Sequence record: OQ031072
Length of the DNA stretch: 64,000 nucleotides
Direction: 5' to 3' (one strand)
From: Shigella phage SFPB
The number at the start of each line of letters is the position of its first letter. Position 1 is the stretch's first letter. The notes beneath the pieces were generated by a model that was not told the DNA's origin, made no database searches, and saw nothing but the letters and a program-made list of their open reading frames with translations. Shown piece after piece: positions 3,331-63,969 of the stretch. Position numbers and translations under genes: made by a program.

Positions 3331-3588
3331 TTTTACTCCTCTCAAATCATTCTGGATAATACCCTACAGCAATTTTCTTCAAAAAGCAAGTTGACAAACT
3401 ACTTGACAAGGTGTTAGTCTTTTCGAAGTGGGTTTTATCTTAATAGACTCCCTTTATAGATTAACTATACAGTTTCTTTAAAAGTCTTAAAAGATTTTTA
3501 ATAGCTTTTAAAAAGCTTTAAAGTTATATGTATAACATACATAAAGATAAGAGATTAAAATCTTTATAGATACTTAACAGAGGCAATC

Positions 3589-5608: not shown

Positions 5609-5809
5609 GTGTTGAAGATGAGAGAGAATAACTTTAAAGTAATTGACCACCGTACAGTGGAACTCTCATCTCTTTCCAAAGAAGTTATGATGGAGCGACT
5701 TGAAAGGGTCGCTTCAAGAAGGAAAGAGATTGCAGAAGAAATCCATGAGCTTGATAAGATTGAAAACGGTCTTAAGGCAGAACTACAACGAAGAGGTGTG
5801 AATGGCTAA
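5609..5809 (+). CDS. hypothetical protein
   Basis: ORF track 66 aa, coiled-coil-like. Confidence 0.35.
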   Translation: MLKMRENNFKVIDHRTVELSSLSKEVMMERLERVASRRKEIAEEIHELDKIENGLKAELQRRGVNG

Positions 5810-7487
5810 ACAGAGAAAACTGAAAGATGCTGGAACATTTGTAGGTCACTGTGCATGTCCACGCCCTCAATGTTTATCTTCAGATGCAGGTTCTATATAT
5901 CGTCATGATGACGGTTCATATTCAATGACATGTTTCAGTTGTGGAAAAGGTTTTCCAGAGTGGGATTTTGATAAAGGGCAGATTGTGAGTACTCATACTT
6001 CAGGTTCAGAGAATAAAAACCGTACATTTCGTGGTATGGATTTAGATGATGTGAAAGAAAACCTAGAAGCAATGGATTTAAAAGACAGGAAGATTCCTGC
6101 AAAAGTCCTTGAGCGCCTTGGTATTAAAGTTGATATTGACGACAATGGTGACATTGATGCGCACTTCTATCCAACATACAAAAAAGATGAAGATGGTAAG
6201 TTGCAACATGTAGGTTATCGTGTTCGTCACAAATATCCAGATGATTATCACAAAGAGCACTTACGTGGGAAGTTGAAAGACTTTTCTGGTGGTGTCGGAG
6301 ATATCAAAGGTGAACTGGCTATGTTCGGTTCATGGATTGCTCCAGAAGGTGGTAACCGTCTTTTCATCTGGGAAGGTGAGATGGAATGTGCTACAGCAAT
6401 CTACATGACTTCTTTAGCAATTAAAGATAAGTCTAGACGTAAGAATTACTGCCACGTTTCTGTACCATCCGGTGCTAATGTTAAGTCTATCAAAGAGAAC
6501 TATCAGTATATTACTTCCTTTGATGAGATTTACCTATGCTTTGATAATGATGAAGCAGGGGCTAAAGCAACTAAGGAAGCTGCTGGTATCTTACCTATTG
6601 AAAAAGTAAGACTGTTCCAGTATCCTGAAGGTATTAAAGACCTTAGTGAGTGGTGGACTAAGTTCTTCAAAGACAAAGATACAGTCTTGGAAGGATTTAA
6701 ACAACGAATCTACAATGCACCTCGTTACTGCCCTGCTGGTATCAAGAACTTTGCAGATGGTTTCGATGCTATGAAGAATCGTGGTCAGATTCCTTTAATT
6801 CCTTTCCCAGATTCTTTCGGGGATTTGAATAAGTTGACTTATGGCGGGTATGGTTTAGGTGAGATTACAACCCTTGCTGCACCTTCATCTGTAGGTAAGT
6901 CTGCATATACTCGTGAAATGATTTACAAAGCATGGAAAGATACTGAGTACAACATCGGTGTAATTCCTGTAGAAGACACTTACGAAGAACTTATGGAAAT
7001 GCTCTGTGCAATCCATCTTAGTAAGCAGATTTCAGAGATTCCTTACGATGAGCGTAATTGGGATGAGATTAAGGTTGCACATGCTGAGTTGTCAAAAGGT
7101 CGTCGTATTCACATCGTAGACCACCAAGGGGCAATTGACCAAGATAACCTGCTGGAGTTTGTTGACTATCTGGTTAACAGCCTTGATTGTAAGATTATCA
7201 TTCTTGACCCTATTACATTGGCGCTGTCACGCTCTGATACAGATGAAGAAGAAGTTCTGTCTGAGTTACTTCGTCGCTGTAAGCGTTATCAGTATGCTCA
7301 GGTAAACGTGTGTCACGTTCGTAAGAGTGCAGGTGGTCAAAAGGCCAACTCTGAAGGTGGTGATATTTCTGAAGAAGATATCAAGGGTTCTGGTGCATAC
7401 TTCCAGATTTCCATGAACAACATTTTGCTTATGCGTAACAAGGTTGACCCAGACCCTGTTAAAAAGAACTTGACAAAATCAAGTTAA
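5802..7487 (+). CDS. DNA primase-helicase (T7 gp4-like), frame-disrupted near 3' end
   Basis: Zn-finger CxxC...CxxC, TOPRIM (EGEMECA, FDNDEAG), Walker A AAPSSVGKS, Walker B IIILDP; frame ends KKNLTKSS* while helicase C-terminus continues in -1 frame. Confidence 0.85.
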   Translation: MAKQRKLKDAGTFVGHCACPRPQCLSSDAGSIYRHDDGSYSMTCFSCGKGFPEWDFDKGQIVSTHTSGSENKNRTFRGMDLDDVKENLEAMDLKDRKIPAKVLERLGIKVDIDDNGDIDAHFYPTYKKDEDGKLQHVGYRVRHKYPDDYHKEHLRGKLKDFSGGVGDIKGELAMFGSWIAPEGGNRLFIWEGEMECATAIYMTSLAIKDKSRRKNYCHVSVPSGANVKSIKENYQYITSFDEIYLCFDNDEAGAKATKEAAGILPIEKVRLFQYPEGIKDLSEWWTKFFKDKDTVLEGFKQRIYNAPRYCPAGIKNFADGFDAMKNRGQIPLIPFPDSFGDLNKLTYGGYGLGEITTLAAPSSVGKSAYTREMIYKAWKDTEYNIGVIPVEDTYEELMEMLCAIHLSKQISEIPYDERNWDEIKVAHAELSKGRRIHIVDHQGAIDQDNLLEFVDYLVNSLDCKIIILDPITLALSRSDTDEEEVLSELLRRCKRYQYAQVNVCHVRKSAGGQKANSEGGDISEEDIKGSGAYFQISMNNILLMRNKVDPDPVKKNLTKSS

Positions 7488-7792
7488 CGAAATGTCGTCG
7501 TCATGGTAAATCAACTGGTATTGCTGGTCACACTTGGTACAATCCAGATACAGGCCGTCTTGTAAAGGCTGCTGGATGTGGTGTTGATATTGATGGTGCA
7601 GCAGAGAATATTCGTCAGCAGTTTGGTATTGGTGAGGCTGAAGACCATTATGATGACTCTATGCCACACTATGAAGATGTTGATTTTGACCGTGAATCTG
7701 GAGAGATTTACACACAAGAGCAACGTGAAAGCTCCACCATTCCACCTGTGATTAACGAGGATAATGATGACTGTCCGTTCGAAACTGATTGA
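7463..7792 (+). CDS. primase-helicase C-terminal segment (continuation in -1 frame)
   Basis: Open frame translating ...KLTKCRRHGKSTGIAGHTWYNPDTGRL..., resembling T7 gp4 C-terminus; no start codon of its own. Confidence 0.6.
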   Translation, partial: KELDKIKLTKCRRHGKSTGIAGHTWYNPDTGRLVKAAGCGVDIDGAAENIRQQFGIGEAEDHYDDSMPHYEDVDFDRESGEIYTQEQRESSTIPPVINEDNDDCPFETD

Positions 7793-8264: not shown

Positions 8265-8672
8265 ATGTCTAAAGTTGTTAAAATGAAAGCTCCGGTAGAG
8301 AAGTACAATGGTCAAGAACGTGAGACTCTGCGTTACCTACTGAAAGATGTTTGGTTCTATTACCTGAACACTATTCCACGTCCTCAAAAGGGTAAATCTG
8401 TGGATAAGCATTTTCCGGGCAAAGATTGTAACTACAGCGTTTCAATTCTGGCAAAAGATGGTAACAAGCTCTTTAAAGAGTTCACCAAATCCAAGCGCAA
8501 TGCTGAAGGTTGGGATAAAGTTACTACAGAGGCTGTTGATGCAGATGACTTCGAAGAGAAGTTTGGTTGTGAGCCTCCGTTTGAAGCTGACACCTATCAC
8601 ATCCTGAAGGTTAGCCGTTCAGCAGCATATAAAGACGGTGCTGTGTGGTCAGCAAAACAGAGTTTCCTGTAA
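8265..8672 (+). CDS. SSB-like protein, N-terminal part (T7 gp2.5-like)
   Basis: ORF track 135 aa; sits in replication module; downstream ORF in -1 frame carries LVPY and acidic tail. Confidence 0.45.
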   Translation: MSKVVKMKAPVEKYNGQERETLRYLLKDVWFYYLNTIPRPQKGKSVDKHFPGKDCNYSVSILAKDGNKLFKEFTKSKRNAEGWDKVTTEAVDADDFEEKFGCEPPFEADTYHILKVSRSAAYKDGAVWSAKQSFL

Positions 8673-9124
8673 TGCTGGTTGAAGAAATCAACGGTAAGCG
8701 TGTTGCAGTTAAGCAGCCTATGAAGAAAATCAAGGCAGCAAAATCTGATAAGCACGATGATGATAAGACTTACGATGTAATTCATCCAGATATTGCAGTT
8801 GGTAACGGCTCATTTGGTAGTGTGATTCTGGCGACTCACTTCTACACATTTGAAGGTAACGTTCTGACCAAGCCAATTCAGGAACAATTTATCATTGATA
8901 CTCTGGTTCCTTACACTGGTGGTACTGGTGGTGCTACTGAGACTGAACTGGATGAAGATGAACTGGCAATGCTTGGTCTTGCAGGTGTTGAAGACAACGG
9001 TGAAATCACTGAAGAAGATGCAAAAGATTCTGGTGATGAAGGTAAAGGTGGTGATGACGATGACGACGACCTACCAAACCCAGATGATGACGACGAAGAT
9101 GATTTCGAAACTGACGACGAGTAA
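8645..9124 (+). CDS. acidic C-terminal protein; probable SSB C-terminal part
   Basis: C-terminus GGDDDDDDLPNPDDDDEDDFETDDE; LVPYTGGTGG resembles T7 gp2.5; internal ATG at 8672 overlaps upstream stop (TAATG). Confidence 0.45.
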   Translation: MVSKTEFPVMLVEEINGKRVAVKQPMKKIKAAKSDKHDDDKTYDVIHPDIAVGNGSFGSVILATHFYTFEGNVLTKPIQEQFIIDTLVPYTGGTGGATETELDEDELAMLGLAGVEDNGEITEEDAKDSGDEGKGGDDDDDDLPNPDDDDEDDFETDDE

Positions 9125-29638: not shown

Positions 29639-30311
29639 CATGGTTCTGTGTCATGCTTATGATATCAAGCCACTTGATTTAGATATCAGTTCTGCAAGTT
29701 GGTCAGATATTGCTAAAGCTGACTTTGCAGATACAGCAAGAAATGTTGTGTGTAGCTTTGAAGACTTCCACTCAACAAAGACACAGATTCCTTGTCAGGA
29801 TTTGCTAACAGGTAAAACTGTATATGTTGGTCGTAACAGCCTTATCTTGGTTGCAAAGAACTTGGAAGAAAAACGTAAAATGGTCTTAGCAGACATTGAT
29901 GGTGTTCTTACAAGTTTTGACAAGAAACTTAATGCAACTCTGTTAGATGATGGTACTTACTCACAGTATACTAACTTGGTAGACTCTCGCAGAGCTAAAC
30001 CAACATATGTTTTTAACATCCTGTGTGGTATATCAAGAAATGCTGATATAGGATTCTTAACTGCTCGTGGAGAATCACAAAGAGTTGTCACACATCTTTT
30101 CCTGAATGAGAATGTAGACAGTGATTTCCTACTGTTTATGCGTGGATTTGGTGACAATGAGATTAGTGCAGAAAGTTTGAAAGTTCGTATGCTTCAGTCT
30201 TGCATTCTACCTTACTATGATGTAGTATGCTTTATAGAAGATACGGTGAAGAACGTGGCAAAGGTTGAAAGAATCTTACCACACATCAAAACAATGCTTG
30301 TTAAAAACTGA
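29616..30311 (+). CDS. HAD-family phosphatase (possible 5'-deoxynucleotidase)
   Basis: HAD motif I LADIDGVL. Confidence 0.45.
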   Translation: MSESKQFDMVLCHAYDIKPLDLDISSASWSDIAKADFADTARNVVCSFEDFHSTKTQIPCQDLLTGKTVYVGRNSLILVAKNLEEKRKMVLADIDGVLTSFDKKLNATLLDDGTYSQYTNLVDSRRAKPTYVFNILCGISRNADIGFLTARGESQRVVTHLFLNENVDSDFLLFMRGFGDNEISAESLKVRMLQSCILPYYDVVCFIEDTVKNVAKVERILPHIKTMLVKN

Positions 30312-30322
30312 GAGAGTAAACC

Positions 30323-30787
30323 ATGCAAAACATTATTACAGTAGCTATCGATGCTTCCGGTAACAAATCACAGGTAGTTCGTGAGATTATCAAAAGTAAT
30401 TTCGATGGTAAAATCTTTCGTGCAGTAAACGTGAAAGCTGATGGTAACATTCGTGAGTATCGTGCAATGTTGAATGTTACAAAACACGTTAAGGGTGTTG
30501 GTTCAACTACTGCTCATAAAGAAAATCTGATGACTATCTATGATATGGGTATGGCTTCAGAGTTAGGTGCAAAAGGGATTGTACAATCTGGTGCTCCTTA
30601 CCGTTCTTTCAATCTGGAAACTGCTCTTATGCTTTCCTTTACAAGTGGTTCTCAAACTACCACTTACCTCTTCACAGATACTGCAACGGTTTCTGCGATT
30701 AAGGACAATACCATTAAGGCTGGTGTAGCTGCTGCTTCAAAAGCCTCAACAATGGCAGCAAATGTCCTTGCGAAAGTTCTTGGTTAA
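30323..30787 (+). CDS. hypothetical protein
   Basis: ORF track 154 aa. Confidence 0.4.
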   Translation: MQNIITVAIDASGNKSQVVREIIKSNFDGKIFRAVNVKADGNIREYRAMLNVTKHVKGVGSTTAHKENLMTIYDMGMASELGAKGIVQSGAPYRSFNLETALMLSFTSGSQTTTYLFTDTATVSAIKDNTIKAGVAAASKASTMAANVLAKVLG

Positions 30788-38928: not shown

Positions 38929-38992
38929 AGTATTTATCAACGGGGAGGAGACTTCCCCACTAAAACAAAATTCCTAAACTGGAGAATCTAGA

Positions 38993-39844: not shown

Positions 39845-39907
39845 TATTACTTTCAACGGGGAGGAGACTCCCCACTAAAACAAAATTCTAAACTGGAGAC
39901 TAGAAAG

Positions 39908-56664: not shown

Positions 56665-56670
56665 AATATT

Positions 56671-56746
56671 AGCAGTGTAGCATAACTGGAAATGCACCAG
56701 CCTCTGAAGCTGAAAGATTAAGGTTCAAATCCTTATACTGCTGCCA
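56671..56746 (+). tRNA. tRNA-Gln (anticodon CTG)
   Basis: Acceptor AGCAGTG/TACTGCT; loop CTCTGAA; G73; CCA. Confidence 0.55.
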
Positions 56747-56777
56747 CTTCTAAGGGTTCTTACGAGAGTCCTTAAAT

Positions 56778-56854
56778 GTGGCCTTATCATAAATGGATAA
56801 TGACCCATGCTGTGAACATGGTCTATACGGGTTCGATTCCCGTAGGTCACCCCA
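56778..56854 (+). tRNA. tRNA-His (anticodon GTG)
   Basis: Anticodon stem CCATG/CATGG, loop CTGTGAA; C73; CCA. Confidence 0.6.
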
Positions 56855-56861
56855 ATTTAAT

Positions 56862-56937
56862 AGCTCAATTAGCTTATATGGTTAAAGCGCGTGTCTGAAA
56901 AACATGAGAACAGGGTTCAAATCCCGATGGGCTACCA
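56862..56937 (+). tRNA. tRNA-Phe (anticodon GAA)
   Basis: Loop CTGAAAA; A73; CCA; T-stem weak. Confidence 0.5.
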
Positions 56938-56953
56938 ACTTTATAGGTGCATA

Positions 56954-57688
56954 ATGAAAGAGATGACAGAACAAAGTAAAGAGATTTTTAATCTCCTTAA
57001 AACCGGTAATGGTTTCTCAAACCCTCTTATTACTGGTGCAGCAGTTCTTGGTGGTACAGTTGCCGCTTCTCAGTCATTAGTAACTTCTATTGGTTCTGTA
57101 TCAGACCCAGCCACACAGCAAATTCTTATTGCTGCTGGACTGACAACAGCCTTATTAGGAAGCTTCACAACAAGCCTTGGAAGTACAACTTCAACGACAA
57201 GTACACTCACTGAGTATGGACAAAAGTCTGTAGATGAGTTTTCACAGCGTATGCAGGTAGCTAAAGGCTACTCTAACGTCATGGGAGCAGTAGGTGAGCA
57301 AGTTGGATGTACACCATTTAGTGGCATTATGGGTGTAGCTACTGAGTACGGCAATAAAGCGATGGATTTGATTAATACCTCCATAGACGCTGTAAACAGC
57401 GTTCTAAGCGATTTGCAAGATGCAATCGATAAAGGACTAGGGACAATCTCTGAACTCGCTACACAGGCTGTTACAGCGATTAATGAGGGCATTGCAAAGA
57501 TTACTGCATATGCTAACGAAGTAGCTCAGATGATTGCAGATGAAGCAGCATTGATTGCAGAATACCTGAAAACAAATATTAATGGTTTCCTTGCAAATGT
57601 TCTACCAAGCTGGTTTGATGATTCATGTAAAACTGGTGTGATTGATACTATTGCAACTCCAGAGATGAAAGAAGCTCTGAACAAATAA
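56954..57688 (+). CDS. hypothetical Ala/Ser/Thr-rich protein with N-terminal hydrophobic segment
   Basis: ATG 56954 just after tRNA-Phe (track start 56891 overlaps tRNA). Confidence 0.45.
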   Translation: MKEMTEQSKEIFNLLKTGNGFSNPLITGAAVLGGTVAASQSLVTSIGSVSDPATQQILIAAGLTTALLGSFTTSLGSTTSTTSTLTEYGQKSVDEFSQRMQVAKGYSNVMGAVGEQVGCTPFSGIMGVATEYGNKAMDLINTSIDAVNSVLSDLQDAIDKGLGTISELATQAVTAINEGIAKITAYANEVAQMIADEAALIAEYLKTNINGFLANVLPSWFDDSCKTGVIDTIATPEMKEALNK

Positions 57689-57689
57689 T

Positions 57690-57781
57690 GGAAGATTAAC
57701 CCTAAAGGTAAGGGAGCAGTTTGCTAAACTGCCAGTAACCGAGAAATCGGCGTACCAGTTCAAGTCTGGTATCTTCCTCCA
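57690..57781 (+). tRNA. tRNA-Ser (anticodon GCT), long variable arm
   Basis: Acceptor GGAAGAT/ATCTTCC; anticodon stem GCAGT/ACTGC, loop TTGCTAA; CCA. Confidence 0.6.
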
Positions 57782-57787
57782 AATTAT

Positions 57788-57863
57788 GTGTCGGTGTCAG
57801 AAATGGTTATGTGCCTGTCTGCAAAACAGGTTTATGAGGGTTCGAGTCCCTTCCGATACTCCA
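57788..57863 (+). tRNA. tRNA-Cys (anticodon GCA)
   Basis: Anticodon stem CCTGT/ACAGG, loop CTGCAAA; U73; CCA. Confidence 0.6.
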
Positions 57864-57895
57864 ATTTATATTAATATCTCTCTCAAAGTTATTAT

Positions 57896-58295: not shown

Positions 58296-59753
58296 TTGCA
58301 GAGGTGCTTAATGGACTTAAATGTTATTAAGCAGAAGCGAGTGGAAGATGTAAGGAAAGTCCTAGCAGGTGAGTTGGGGCTTTCTGAAGAAGTAAAAGAT
58401 ATTATCAAATCCTTTGGTAAAGACCCCTCTAAATTCCTTCCAACTCAAATTCTGACTTTATTAAGGTACACCCCAGACCAAGTAAGACTCATCTTTAAAT
58501 TGATGACTGACAAGAACTATGTAGCTCCACAGCCTGGCTCTCAAGAGGTATTCTTGAACACTAATGCTGACTTGGTACTATATGGTGGTGCTGCTGGTGC
58601 TGGTAAGACTGCTGCCCTATTAATGGACTCACTAAGGTTTATTGAAGACCCAAACTATAACGCTGTTTATTTCCGTCGAAATACAACACAGTTACAAGGT
58701 GGTTTGTGGCCTGCGGCTAAGAAGTTATTTGGTAAGTTTGGTGGAGTTCCACATGAACAGAAAATGACTATCACTTTCCCTTCTGGAGCAACTATCAAGT
58801 TTACTTATTTGGAACTTGAGAAACACTCAGAAGGTCACCAAGGTATCGAATACTCAGCTATTTATTTCGACGAAGGTACACACTTCTCGGCTTCACAGAT
58901 TTCATATCTTCAGACACGTTTACGTTCTGGTGCTGAAGGTGACTCATATATGAAAATCTCAATGAACCCAGATAGAGACCACTTTATTTATGATTGGGTA
59001 GAACCTTTCCTAGATGATGCTGGATATCCAGACCCAGAGAAGTGCGGTAGGATTCGTTGGTATGTTATGAATGATGGTGTCATGGTTTCTGATTGGGATA
59101 GAGATAAAATTCTTGAAATGTTCCCTCTTGAGATTCCTCAAACATATACCTTTATTTCCGGTACAATTGATGACAACCCTATTCTAGATTTCCTTGAACC
59201 TAAGTATCGTGGTAAATTAGAAAACAACACACCAGTTAACGTTGCACGTTTACGTTTTGGTAACTGGAAAGCTCGTGCTGAAGGTTCAAACTATTGGCAA
59301 AGACAATGGTGTGAAATTGTTGATAGTGTTCCAGCAGATGTATTTGACGTAAGAGCATGGGACTTAGCAGCAACATTACCTTCTGAGGTTAACCCTAACC
59401 CTGACTGGACAGCAGGTGTTAAAATGGGTAAATCTAAAAAAGATGGTTGCTATTATGTGATTAACGTAGTAAGATTTAGAGATAGACCTTCTGGAGTTGA
59501 AACACAAATTAACCAAACTGCTGAAGGTGATGGTAAGCGCACAGGTATTTTTATCCCTCAAGACCCCGGCGCTGCTGGTAAATCCTACGCAACCTCCTTA
59601 TTAGAAAACTTGCTGAGAAAGGTTTCCGAGCAAGAGCTAAACCAACAAATAAAGATAAAGTCACCCGTTTTGCGGGTTTCTCTGCTGCTTCTGAGGCAGG
59701 ACTTGTCAAAATTGTTAGAGGCTCTTGGAATGAAGCATATTTCCAAGAACTAG
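58296..59753 (+). CDS. terminase large subunit (ATPase domain), frame-disrupted before nuclease domain
   Basis: Walker A LYGGAAGAGKTA; DPGAAGKSYA motif; frame ends in atypical sequence while terminase C-terminus continues in -1 frame. Confidence 0.8.
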   Translation: MQRCLMDLNVIKQKRVEDVRKVLAGELGLSEEVKDIIKSFGKDPSKFLPTQILTLLRYTPDQVRLIFKLMTDKNYVAPQPGSQEVFLNTNADLVLYGGAAGAGKTAALLMDSLRFIEDPNYNAVYFRRNTTQLQGGLWPAAKKLFGKFGGVPHEQKMTITFPSGATIKFTYLELEKHSEGHQGIEYSAIYFDEGTHFSASQISYLQTRLRSGAEGDSYMKISMNPDRDHFIYDWVEPFLDDAGYPDPEKCGRIRWYVMNDGVMVSDWDRDKILEMFPLEIPQTYTFISGTIDDNPILDFLEPKYRGKLENNTPVNVARLRFGNWKARAEGSNYWQRQWCEIVDSVPADVFDVRAWDLAATLPSEVNPNPDWTAGVKMGKSKKDGCYYVINVVRFRDRPSGVETQINQTAEGDGKRTGIFIPQDPGAAGKSYATSLLENLLRKVSEQELNQQIKIKSPVLRVSLLLLRQDLSKLLEALGMKHISKN

Positions 59754-59911
59754 AAGGTTTTTGTGGCGATGGTCGTACTAAGGATGACCAAGTGGATGCT
59801 ACCAGTGATGCTTTCAACAGTCTAAACGAAGTTAAACTATTCAAGCCACCTTCAATGGGTGCTCATACAGATATTATGAAGAGTAATCCATATCAGGGGC
59901 TAAGACGCTAA
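59582..59911 (+). CDS. terminase large subunit C-terminal segment (continuation in -1 frame)
   Basis: Translation ...RKLAEKGFRARAKPTNKDKVTRFAGFSAASEAGLVKIVRGSWNEAYFQELEGFCGDGRTKDDQVDATSDAFNSL... with terminase KxDDxVDA..AF motif. Confidence 0.65.
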   Translation: MLRNLLIRKLAEKGFRARAKPTNKDKVTRFAGFSAASEAGLVKIVRGSWNEAYFQELEGFCGDGRTKDDQVDATSDAFNSLNEVKLFKPPSMGAHTDIMKSNPYQGLRR

Positions 59912-59923
59912 TAGGTAGAAAGA

Positions 59924-61387
59924 ATGGCAGATATCACAGAAACACAAGAAAGCCTTCCTCCATTCAGAATGGGTGAGGTTGGGAGTCTTGGCCTTAAAGT
60001 TCGCTCAGGAAGAATCTATGAAGAACCTAGACAGGCTTTAAGATTCCCAGAAAGTATTAAGACTTTCCAACTTATGATGAGAGACCCTTCAGTAGCAGCC
60101 TCTGTAAATATTATTAAGATGTTTGTCAGAAAGGTTAACTGGAGATTCGTACCACCGAAGGGAAAAGAGAAAGATGCCAAGATGATTGAAAGGGCTAATT
60201 TCTTTAACTCACTAATGAATGACATGGAGCACGATTGGGCTGACTTTATTAACTCTGTAATGTCATTCTGTACTTACGGTTTCTGTGTAAACGAGAAAGT
60301 TTATAAGAAACGTCAAGGTAAGAAAGGTAAGTACCCTTCAAAATATAATGATGGTTTAATTGGTTGGGCTAAATTACCAATCCGTAATCAGACTACATTA
60401 GATAAATGGTACTTTGACTCTGACTATAGAAAAGTTATTGGTGTTAGACAGAACCTGCGTAATGTTTCCCATATTGCAGGAGCAATTAATCTTGGTGAAC
60501 AACCATTGACAAGAAAGCTTCCTAGTAAATTCTTATTGTTCAAGTATGACGATGAATACGGTAACCCAGAGGGACGTTCACCATTACTTAATGCTTATGT
60601 TCCTTGGAAATACAAAGTTCAAATTGAAGAGTTTGAAGCAGTTGGTGTTTCCAGAGACTTAGTAGGTATGCCAAAGATTGGTCTTCCACCTGATTACTTA
60701 GGTGAAGATGCAGAGCCTGAAAAGAAAGCTTTTGTTAAATACTGCCAAGAAGTAGTAAATGATTTAATTGCTAATGACAGAGCAGGTTTAATTTGGCCTA
60801 GATTTATCGACCCAGAAACTAAAGAAGATATCTTTGAGTTCTCATTAGTTTCTCGACAGGGTGCTAAAGCTTATGATACAGGTTCTATCATTGATAGATA
60901 CTCTAAGCAAATTATGATGGCGTTTATGTCTGATGTTCTTGCTATGGGACAGTCAAAATATGGTTCATTCTCTCTGGCAGATTCTAAGACAAGCTTACTG
61001 GCAATGTCAGTTGATATTCTTCTGAAGCAAGTGAAGAATGTAATTAACCGTGATTTGGTTGCTCAGACTTATGCACTAAATATGTGGGATGATGAAGAAC
61101 ACGTAGAAATTGTGTATGATGATATTGAGACACCAGACCTTGAAGCTATTGCATCATTCATTCAGAAGACAGTTGCAGTTGGTGCTCTGGAAGTTGATAA
61201 GCCATTGTCTGACAAGCTTAGAGAATATCTTGACCTTGAACCTGCTGATGAGTCTAAACCAGTATCTGAGAAACTATCTCCAAACACTCAAAGTCGTTCT
61301 GGTGATGGTTATCAAACTGCTGGAGAAGGGACTGCTAAAACTCCTTCAGCTAAAGACCCAAGCACAGCTAATAAGGCAAACAAATAA
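59924..61387 (+). CDS. portal protein
   Basis: 487 aa between terminase and prohead protease. Confidence 0.65.
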   Translation: MADITETQESLPPFRMGEVGSLGLKVRSGRIYEEPRQALRFPESIKTFQLMMRDPSVAASVNIIKMFVRKVNWRFVPPKGKEKDAKMIERANFFNSLMNDMEHDWADFINSVMSFCTYGFCVNEKVYKKRQGKKGKYPSKYNDGLIGWAKLPIRNQTTLDKWYFDSDYRKVIGVRQNLRNVSHIAGAINLGEQPLTRKLPSKFLLFKYDDEYGNPEGRSPLLNAYVPWKYKVQIEEFEAVGVSRDLVGMPKIGLPPDYLGEDAEPEKKAFVKYCQEVVNDLIANDRAGLIWPRFIDPETKEDIFEFSLVSRQGAKAYDTGSIIDRYSKQIMMAFMSDVLAMGQSKYGSFSLADSKTSLLAMSVDILLKQVKNVINRDLVAQTYALNMWDDEEHVEIVYDDIETPDLEAIASFIQKTVAVGALEVDKPLSDKLREYLDLEPADESKPVSEKLSPNTQSRSGDGYQTAGEGTAKTPSAKDPSTANKANK

Positions 61388-62230: not shown

Positions 62231-62443
62231 ATGAGTTCGAATATCTTCAGACTTGCTGACAGATTATTCAACCAACCTTTACTAGCTACAGAATCATTAG
62301 CCCACTCAGCAGCGACTTATGTTAATAACCGCTTGTTAGGTGAGGTACAAGCAGCAGTAAACTTCGATAAGCCAAAAGGTGAAGCAAGGAGTCTTTTAAA
62401 GTTAAAGAAGACATTGCTATCATCCCTATTATGGGTGGCCTAA
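62231..62443 (+). CDS. prohead protease N-terminal segment (upstream frame)
   Basis: MSSNIFRLADRLFNQPLLATE... resembles N-terminus of S49-type phage head proteases; main protease frame is -1 relative. Confidence 0.5.
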   Translation: MSSNIFRLADRLFNQPLLATESLAHSAATYVNNRLLGEVQAAVNFDKPKGEARSLLKLKKTLLSSLLWVA

Positions 62444-63579
62444 CACATCGTATGACCTTCATGGATGCAATGTGTACTGGTGGACTAAGTTCTTATGAAG
62501 GTTTACGCAGAGGCTTTGACGAAGCCCTAGCAGATGAGTCTATTAAGACTATCGTGCTGCACGTTGATTCAGGTGGTGGTGAAGCGTCAGGTTGTTTTGA
62601 GTTGGCACGTCACATCATGGCTTCAAGAGGCCAAAAGAAAATTATTGCTTATGTAGATGAGTTTGCTTGCTCTGCTGCATATGCTCTTGCATCTTCCGCT
62701 GAAGAAATTATTGCATCACCAGATGCAGATGTTGGTTCAATTGGTGTGATTATGGTTCACCAAGAATTAACTAAAGCATTTGAAAAGAATGGCGTAACTA
62801 TTAACGTTATTAAAGCTGGTGAATTTAAAGGTATGGGTTCCCCATTCCAAGCATTATCAGAAGAAAGCAAGAATAGACTTCAAAAGAGAATTGATGACAC
62901 TTACAAGACTTTTACTAGTTTTGTTGCAGACTCACGTAATATCTCCGAAGAAGCTGTAAAGAATACTGAGGCGAATGTTTATTCTGCTCAGGAAGCTCTT
63001 GAACTTGGTTTAATTAACTCTATCATGTCTCAAGATGATTTCTTAAATTACTTACAAGGTTCTGAAGAAGCTCCTGTAAGTTTAAACACAAACAATTCAG
63101 GTGAAGAAATGACTGAACAAGAAAAGCAAGAACTAGAAGCTCTGCGTCTTCAGGTTGCTCAAATGAAAGCTAAGGAACAGGAAGCAGTTCTTACAGATTT
63201 AACTGGTAAGGTTTCTGCATCTGCTGAAGCTTTTGGGTTTGATGCAAAAGAAGCTGCAACAGCTATTTTAGGTGCTGGTCTTGACAACCCTCTGAGTGTT
63301 CTGTTTATGAATGCTATGGAAGGTGCTAACCAGAAACTTAATGAAACTATCGCGTCCCATGCTTCTGCCATGTCTGAGAAGGATTCTGAAATCACTAAGC
63401 TGAAAGAAGCTGCTGGTGCTGTTCTGGAACACTCAAACGCTATGGAAGAACTTGGCAATGACGGCGAAGCAGAAGTGGATGATGGTAAAGATACCACTCC
63501 AGAAGCAAATGTTAATGCTAACGCTGACCAACGCAAACTGGCTCTCCAGAATGCTTTGAATACTCTTATCAAGAAATAA
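62431..63579 (+). CDS. prohead protease (S49/ClpP-like) with C-terminal coiled-coil scaffold-like region
   Basis: VLHVDSGGGEASG and CSAAYALASSA motifs; coiled-coil C-terminus; frame open upstream to 62383. Confidence 0.75.
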   Translation: MGGLTHRMTFMDAMCTGGLSSYEGLRRGFDEALADESIKTIVLHVDSGGGEASGCFELARHIMASRGQKKIIAYVDEFACSAAYALASSAEEIIASPDADVGSIGVIMVHQELTKAFEKNGVTINVIKAGEFKGMGSPFQALSEESKNRLQKRIDDTYKTFTSFVADSRNISEEAVKNTEANVYSAQEALELGLINSIMSQDDFLNYLQGSEEAPVSLNTNNSGEEMTEQEKQELEALRLQVAQMKAKEQEAVLTDLTGKVSASAEAFGFDAKEAATAILGAGLDNPLSVLFMNAMEGANQKLNETIASHASAMSEKDSEITKLKEAAGAVLEHSNAMEELGNDGEAEVDDGKDTTPEANVNANADQRKLALQNALNTLIKK

Positions 63580-63591
63580 GGAACACAAATA

Positions 63592-63969
63592 ATGGCATAT
63601 CAAGGTTTTACTAAATTAGGTGAAAGAGAACCTCTTAACGATATCATCCTTTGGGAAGAAATTACCCCAACTGGTCACTCTCGTAAAGAGTATGCTCCAG
63701 TGGCAAGCACAGAATACCGTGTTGGTGAAGTTCTGAAGGCTGACGGCTCTAAAGTAGCTGCTGGTCAAGAAGCTCAGGCAGATTCTGTATGTATCGTTAA
63801 CTTCTATGCAGACCTGCAACTGTCTTATCATGGTCAGTTAAAAGTCGTTGGTATCTACCGTGACGCTGAACTGAAAGACTTGCTGAAGCTAGAGAGTGGT
63901 GTTGATGCTGCTGCTGTCAAGTCTGCTCTTAAGGCGAAAGGTATTGATTTCGTCCCAACTGGCCTGTAA
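63592..63969 (+). CDS. head decoration-like protein
   Basis: 125 aa immediately after protease/scaffold gene; call is positional. Confidence 0.35.
   Translation: MAYQGFTKLGEREPLNDIILWEEITPTGHSRKEYAPVASTEYRVGEVLKADGSKVAAGQEAQADSVCIVNFYADLQLSYHGQLKVVGIYRDAELKDLLKLESGVDAAAVKSALKAKGIDFVPTGL

Follow-up and report, generated by a model that had tools for sequence, protein, structure and literature searches.

The closest described counterparts of the locus considered here are the head maturation protease genes of Mooglevirus phages, in which the protease is encoded by a single uninterrupted ORF of 448-449 aa. A single CDS is annotated at the corresponding place in Shigella phage Sf14 (gp32, 1350 nt, AUV62773.1), in Sf18 (gp118, 1347 nt) and in Citrobacter phage Moogle (gp77, 1350 nt), where it is named head maturation or prohead protease, and the gene order in the relatives runs portal, two small genes, protease, decoration-like protein and major capsid protein. 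Concerning -1 frameshifting, U_UU.A_AA.G is among the efficient motifs in E. coli, where it shifts at more than 0.1% in the absence of stimulators; even the best heptamers attain only ~0.3% when unstimulated and up to ~3.7% in the best 3' context, and slippage on AAG should be less frequent in the presence of a tRNA-Lys whose anticodon is 3'-UUC-5' (Sharma et al., 2014; PMC4066793). Shine-Dalgarno-like stimulators of +1 shifts act at a spacing of 3 nt, and those of -1 shifts at 9-14 nt (Atkins et al., 2016; PMC5009743).

The DNA analysed here, hereafter the window, is a stretch of 64,000 nucleotides of Shigella phage SFPB (record OQ031072), a Mooglevirus phage (FelixO1-like myovirus, Ounavirinae). 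A 1.5-kb query round the site matched 256 phage records, the best being Shigella phage Sf14 at 99.8% (2 substitutions and 1 gap over 1501 nt), and when 25 kb are compared Shigella phage Henu11 comes closest, with 97.0% identity at 95% coverage. The protease gene of the window lies in two frames and is one base short. The elements relevant to this break are the following:

62231..63579, + strand: complete head maturation (prohead) protease gene, S49 family, 1349 nt against 1347-1350 nt in relatives
62231..62443, + strand: upstream ORF fragment of 70 codons (70 aa), starting MSSNIFRLADRLFNQPLLATE
62383..62443, + strand: overlap of 61 nt in which the upstream frame and the -1 frame are both open
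62386..62391, + strand: Shine-Dalgarno-like AAGGAG, 3 nt upstream of the heptamer
62395..62401, + strand: heptamer T_TTA_AAG (TTTAAAG), in the X_XXY_YYZ register of the upstream frame
62398..62400, + strand: A3 run, A4 in every relative examined, the site of the missing base
62431..63579, + strand: mechanically delimited ORF of 382 aa with an internal Met start, comprising the protease body and the C-terminal half
55016..55091, + strand: phage tRNA-Lys with anticodon CUU, cognate for AAG (ARAGORN)

We consider it very probable that this is an ordinary S49 head maturation protease gene in which one A was under-called during sequencing or assembly, and that it holds no new recoding signal. Codons 1-57 of the 70-aa ORF (to LLK) are the genuine N-terminus of the protease: residues 1-53 of the relatives' proteins correspond to 62231..62389 with 100% identity, after which the frame changes (tblastn), and the final 13 codons (LKKTLLSSLLWVA) are out of frame and end at the TAA at 62441..62443. 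A TGA at 62380..62382 precedes the opening of the -1 frame, which reads SKESFKVKEDIAIIPIMGG from 62383 and continues into the 382-aa ORF up to the stop at 63579. This second frame displays 98.2-98.5% identity to relatives (tblastn), and the 382-aa ORF is without the first 66 residues of the protease. With one A restored, tblastn aligns residues 1-137 without interruption to the head maturation protease of Sf14, at 100% identity, which bears out the proposal of the initial annotation that the 70-aa ORF is the N-terminus of an S49 protease. The repaired N-terminus also aligns with the S49 proteases of Erwinia, Yersinia PY54 and Rheinheimera phages at 30-56% identity (tblastn). The repaired protein of 449 aa matches Pfam PF01343 Peptidase_S49 (E = 3.8e-39; 134.6 bits against a cutoff of 24.9) over residues 134-275, a segment located entirely inside the 382-aa part. 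Given its identity of 98-100% to annotated proteases, the protein presumably keeps the catalytic Ser/Lys residues of the family. The gene shows no decay, its amino acid identity to relatives being 100% before the break and 98% after it.

The setting of the gene is that of the relatives, with the large terminase at 58311..59908, a portal homologue at 59924..61387, the protease at 62231..63579 and a decoration-like ORF at 63592..63969; the major capsid protein follows the decoration-like gene in relatives, and the protease is thus placed between the portal and the capsid gene. The C-terminal half of the protease gene is rich in coiled coil. The last ~190 residues (within 63100..63579) are coiled-coil-like (EQEKQELEALRLQVAQMKAKEQEA...), and an internal ATG at ~63110 could start a putative nested scaffold protein, as Nu3 does within C of lambda.

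The missing base is one A of an A4 run within a T4A4 stretch. All aligned relatives read TTTTAAAAG against TTTTAAAG in the window; in the finer comparison Sf14, Sf18 and Moogle all carry TCTTTTAAAAGTTAAAGA, the window has TCTTTT-AAAGTTAAAGA, and the flanks are otherwise identical. Henu11, Sf18 and Sf14 are concordant on A4 at 62398, and 25 nt on each side of the deletion are 100% identical to Sf18. Using a 76-nt query in a megablast search of the phage collection, we found that all the close records (15 of 15) span 77 nt and that none matches at 100%. By tblastn, 254 Ounavirinae records share at least 90% amino acid identity with the repaired N-terminal 137 aa (252 of them 95-100%), and each of 60 rows sampled across the ranking, the distant Erwinia, Yersinia and Rheinheimera phage proteases included, covers the junction in one piece, hence in one frame. 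The A3 allele was sought in four public collections, and neither this megablast search nor exact-pattern scans of contigs from IMG/VR (viral), GTDB (genomes) and JGI (metagenomes) returned a copy of it. The relatives therefore carry an unbroken ORF with exactly one A more, which is the first of the two observations that the initial annotation had named as contrary to its own proposal.

The protease deletion has company in the window. Homopolymer deletions of one base with respect to concordant Henu11, Sf18 and Sf14 sequences are located at 3338, 7475, 8666, 21029, 38947, 39863 and 53337, and further ones at 54002, 57704, 59596 and 62398; another, at 56510, has the backing of two relatives. Against these 11-12 deletions stand only three window-specific insertions of one base on which all three relatives agree. 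Seven of the deletions (3338, 8666, 21029, 38947, 39863, 53337 and 59596) reduce C3 to C2 in the context TCCCT/AGGGA, a pattern that looks like a context-specific base-calling error. A wholesale loss of TCCCT sites was considered and rejected, with 86 TCCCT/AGGGA remaining in the window; the error is context-biased but partial. An intergenic repeat (GGGGAGGGAGACTTCCCCACTAAAACAAAATTCC) is also present in at least two copies among the small early genes, at 38940..38965 and 39860..39890, each with window-specific differences in homopolymer length.

Four of the deletions (7475, 8666, 59596 and 62398) produce a -1 shift of frame in conserved genes, as judged by tblastn of the relatives' ORFs. Besides the protease, the genes concerned are:

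5802..7789: DNA primase/helicase, broken by A5 to A4 at 7475 in GACAAAAATC; one CDS of 1992 nt in relatives
8265..9121: conserved hypothetical gp34-like gene of 286 aa, CCC to CC at 8666 in TTTCCCTG; homologue of Henu11 gp12 and Sf18 gp34
58311..59908: large terminase, CCC to CC at 59596 in ACCTCCCTTA; one CDS of 1602 nt in relatives

The primase/helicase, the large terminase and the head protease are normally indispensable. Since all three are broken in the window, a viable phage in which all the lesions are real is implausible. The tRNA genes are affected as well: the tRNA-Lys(UUU) at 53276..53350 has lost one C of its T-arm CCC at 53337 with respect to Sf18 and Sf14, and the deletions at 56510 and 57704 affect the beginning of tRNA-Gln(UUG) and the interior of tRNA-Ser(GCU). 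The cluster in which these genes lie (52100..57870) comprises 25 tRNA genes according to ARAGORN, including tRNA-Lys with both UUU and CUU anticodons and three tRNA-Leu. The apparent lack of a tRNA-Tyr between tRNA-Asn and tRNA-Asp was considered as a further lesion and discarded, the DNA being identical to that of Sf18, in which ARAGORN is silent too; the tRNA-Tyr in the annotation of Sf14 and Sf18 is a tRNAscan-SE call, and the difference is one between tools.

We observed the protease deletion, its uniqueness to the window and the other deletions directly. Given the bias in direction, the bias in context and the perfect flanks, we infer that the cause of the missing A is most likely technical and not a mutation; an unpolished assembly from nanopore reads alone, 454 or Ion Torrent would produce such a pattern. 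It would be an under-called homopolymer, one of about a dozen deletions in the window, and the real phage would encode the protease as one ORF of ~449 codons, translated conventionally.

The initial annotation had pointed to a slippery heptamer at the locus, and the sequence facts that it gave hold: the -1 frame opens at 62383, and TTTAAAG lies inside the overlap in X_XXY_YYZ register. The codons of the upstream frame at the site are AGT CTT TTA AAG TTA, and T_TTA_AAG is the sole in-register X_XXY_YYZ heptamer within 62383..62443. It was also right that this is the only frame break with a textbook slippery site, the other three being free of such heptamers: we found none in register in the overlaps of the primase/helicase, gp34-like and terminase breaks (59582..59753 for the terminase). 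The wild-type codons CTT TTA AAA GTT already hold T_TTA_AAA in register, and the loss of one A converts T_TTA_AAA_G into T_TTA_AAG, making the heptamer a by-product of the deletion. In-register X_XXA_AAG does not occur in the 12,484 codons of the window's 40 intact ORFs of at least 150 aa; this fits the notion that such sites are as a rule avoided, and the one at the protease break was probably not selected for. In any register, the window has 44 copies of TTTAAAG, compared with an expected 24.

How often a deletion would create such a heptamer was estimated by simulation, with one base removed from each of 1,704 homopolymer runs (3 nt or longer) within intact ORFs of 150 aa or more in the window. 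The resulting overlap contained an in-register X_XXY_YYZ heptamer in 6.3% of the simulated deletions and X_XXA_AAG in 1.8% (5% for runs of four), and with four broken ORFs the chance of one heptamer coincidence is ~7-23%. A heptamer beside one of four breaks is thus an unremarkable coincidence. After a tandem -1 slip on T_TTA_AAG the ribosome would read L-L-K followed by GTT as V, and the product, SLLKVKEDIAI, is exactly that of the wild type; consequently, mass spectrometry of the junction peptide, as suggested in the initial annotation, cannot separate an A4 genome from an A3 genome with slippage, and only nucleic-acid sequencing can.

Elements that could stimulate a shift were sought on both sides of the heptamer. 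The initial annotation had suggested looking for a downstream hairpin or pseudoknot, which in sites of this type begins about 5-8 nt past the heptamer, and no hairpin fold beyond that of shuffled controls was found there: minimum free energies for the 49, 79 and 119 nt downstream gave z = -0.13, -0.46 and -0.99 against dinucleotide shuffles. The only significant fold, over 62380..62480 (z = -2.0), was rejected as a stimulator; in it GUCUUUU pairs with AAGAAGAC, and the heptamer is inside the stem-loop, not upstream of it. The AAGGAG upstream of the heptamer was rejected as a dnaX-like stimulator, its spacing being 3 nt against the 9-14 nt needed, and it is unconserved, reading AAGAAG in Moogle and, over a shorter flank, in Henu11; such a 5' element, known from dnaX and IS elements, is an optional part of -1 sites. 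The lack of stimulatory elements, like the deletion itself, is directly observed. The phage's own tRNA-Lys(CUU) is expected to lower slippage on the AAG of the heptamer. None of the relatives examined conserves the two-frame arrangement with its shift site, all having one ORF with A4.

A real mutation in the sequenced phage DNA, leaving a phage that is either defective or rescued by adventitious corrective -1 slippage on U_UUA_AAG, is in our judgement unlikely. It would agree with the correct register of the heptamer and with the efficiency of U_UU.A_AA.G in E. coli (PMC4066793), as well as with a slip product that is exactly wild type over SLLKVKED, a result somewhat more convenient than expected by chance (~2-5% per simulated deletion). 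The window's long ORFs contain no second in-register X_XXA_AAG, and herpesvirus thymidine kinase provides a precedent for compensatory frameshifting on indels (PMC5009743). However, three more conserved genes are broken without a slippery site and a tRNA is damaged, so that several independent lethal lesions would be needed, and the A3 allele was found nowhere else in the four collections. Rescue by slippage would in addition have to proceed without a stimulatory structure, with a Shine-Dalgarno-like element at a spacing of the +1 type and against the lowering of AAG slippage by the phage tRNA-Lys(CUU). That A3 is real in a viable phage which makes full-length protease only via unstimulated -1 slippage appears very unlikely. 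If this were so, an essential virion-assembly gene would be rescued by corrective frameshifting in nature, which would suggest that very little protease suffices for head maturation and would give a rough lower bound on the amount required by a FelixO1-like phage; nothing points there.

Still less probable is a gene that is truly split and yields an N-terminally truncated protease through termination-reinitiation at the ATG at 62431. This start codon lies 10 nt ahead of the TAA of the upstream ORF (62441..62443), and the Pfam S49 match is wholly in the 382-aa part. The truncation would, however, remove 66 conserved residues, including VKEDIAIIPI, that are 95-100% conserved in Ounavirinae and whose alignment with distant S49 phage proteases begins at about residue 1-8; moreover, the split is present in no relative and no obvious Shine-Dalgarno precedes 62431. 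The initial annotation had offered a homopolymer error or genuine programmed -1 frameshifting, and of its two options the former is favoured by the single ORF of the relatives, with one A more, while the latter fails. An evolved frameshift that sets the ratio of the 70-aa product to full-length protease, in the style of dnaX or of the tail-chaperone pair G/GT, would account for the heptamer and the ORF overlap and for nothing else. The two-ORF layout is not conserved, occurring in no relative aligned or sampled, the site has no 3' structure, its Shine-Dalgarno-like element is misplaced and unconserved, and the out-of-frame stretch of 13 codons that ends the short product is without counterpart in relatives; the comparison with relatives in effect refutes this reading, and we regard it as the least probable of all, to the point of being barely conceivable.

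As a recoding signal the feature is best regarded as not real, and the gene is already annotated in relatives. Reading the break as an under-called homopolymer, we suggest that the protease, the large terminase, the primase/helicase and the gp34-like gene each be annotated as one gene carrying a probable sequence error, and not as pseudogenes or recoded genes. In AT-rich phage genomes, errors of homopolymer length hit sequences that resemble slippery sites, and a textbook heptamer at a frame break therefore says little in favour of recoding unless the arrangement is common to relatives.

Among known systems, the G-run mutants of herpes simplex thymidine kinase ('savior-indel', PMC5009743) likewise involve a homopolymer indel that slippage could offset; unlike them, the indel of the window is probably absent from the phage DNA and has no selective reason. 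In dnaX of E. coli the shift site A_AAA_AAG is accompanied by a 5' Shine-Dalgarno-like element and a 3' stem-loop. The window shares with it the X_XXA_AAG type and tRNA-Lys in the A site; it differs from dnaX in having no 3' stem-loop, a Shine-Dalgarno-like element at 3 nt, no conservation and a phage-supplied tRNA-Lys(CUU). In Sf14, two adjacent ORFs annotated as 'putative tape measure chaperone' (29825..30462) lie just upstream of the tape measure gene, and such chaperone ORFs are the expected place for a genuine conserved -1 frameshift of the G/GT type in this phage group. At the level of the protein, the window protease belongs with the lambda gpC-type and SppA S49 peptidases in the common Pfam family PF01343, and its long coiled-coil C-terminal half recalls the protease-scaffold arrangement of lambda C/Nu3. 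The head maturation protease of Mooglevirus and other FelixO1-like phages (Sf14, Sf18, Moogle) is the same gene at the same position, from which the window differs by the lack of one A.
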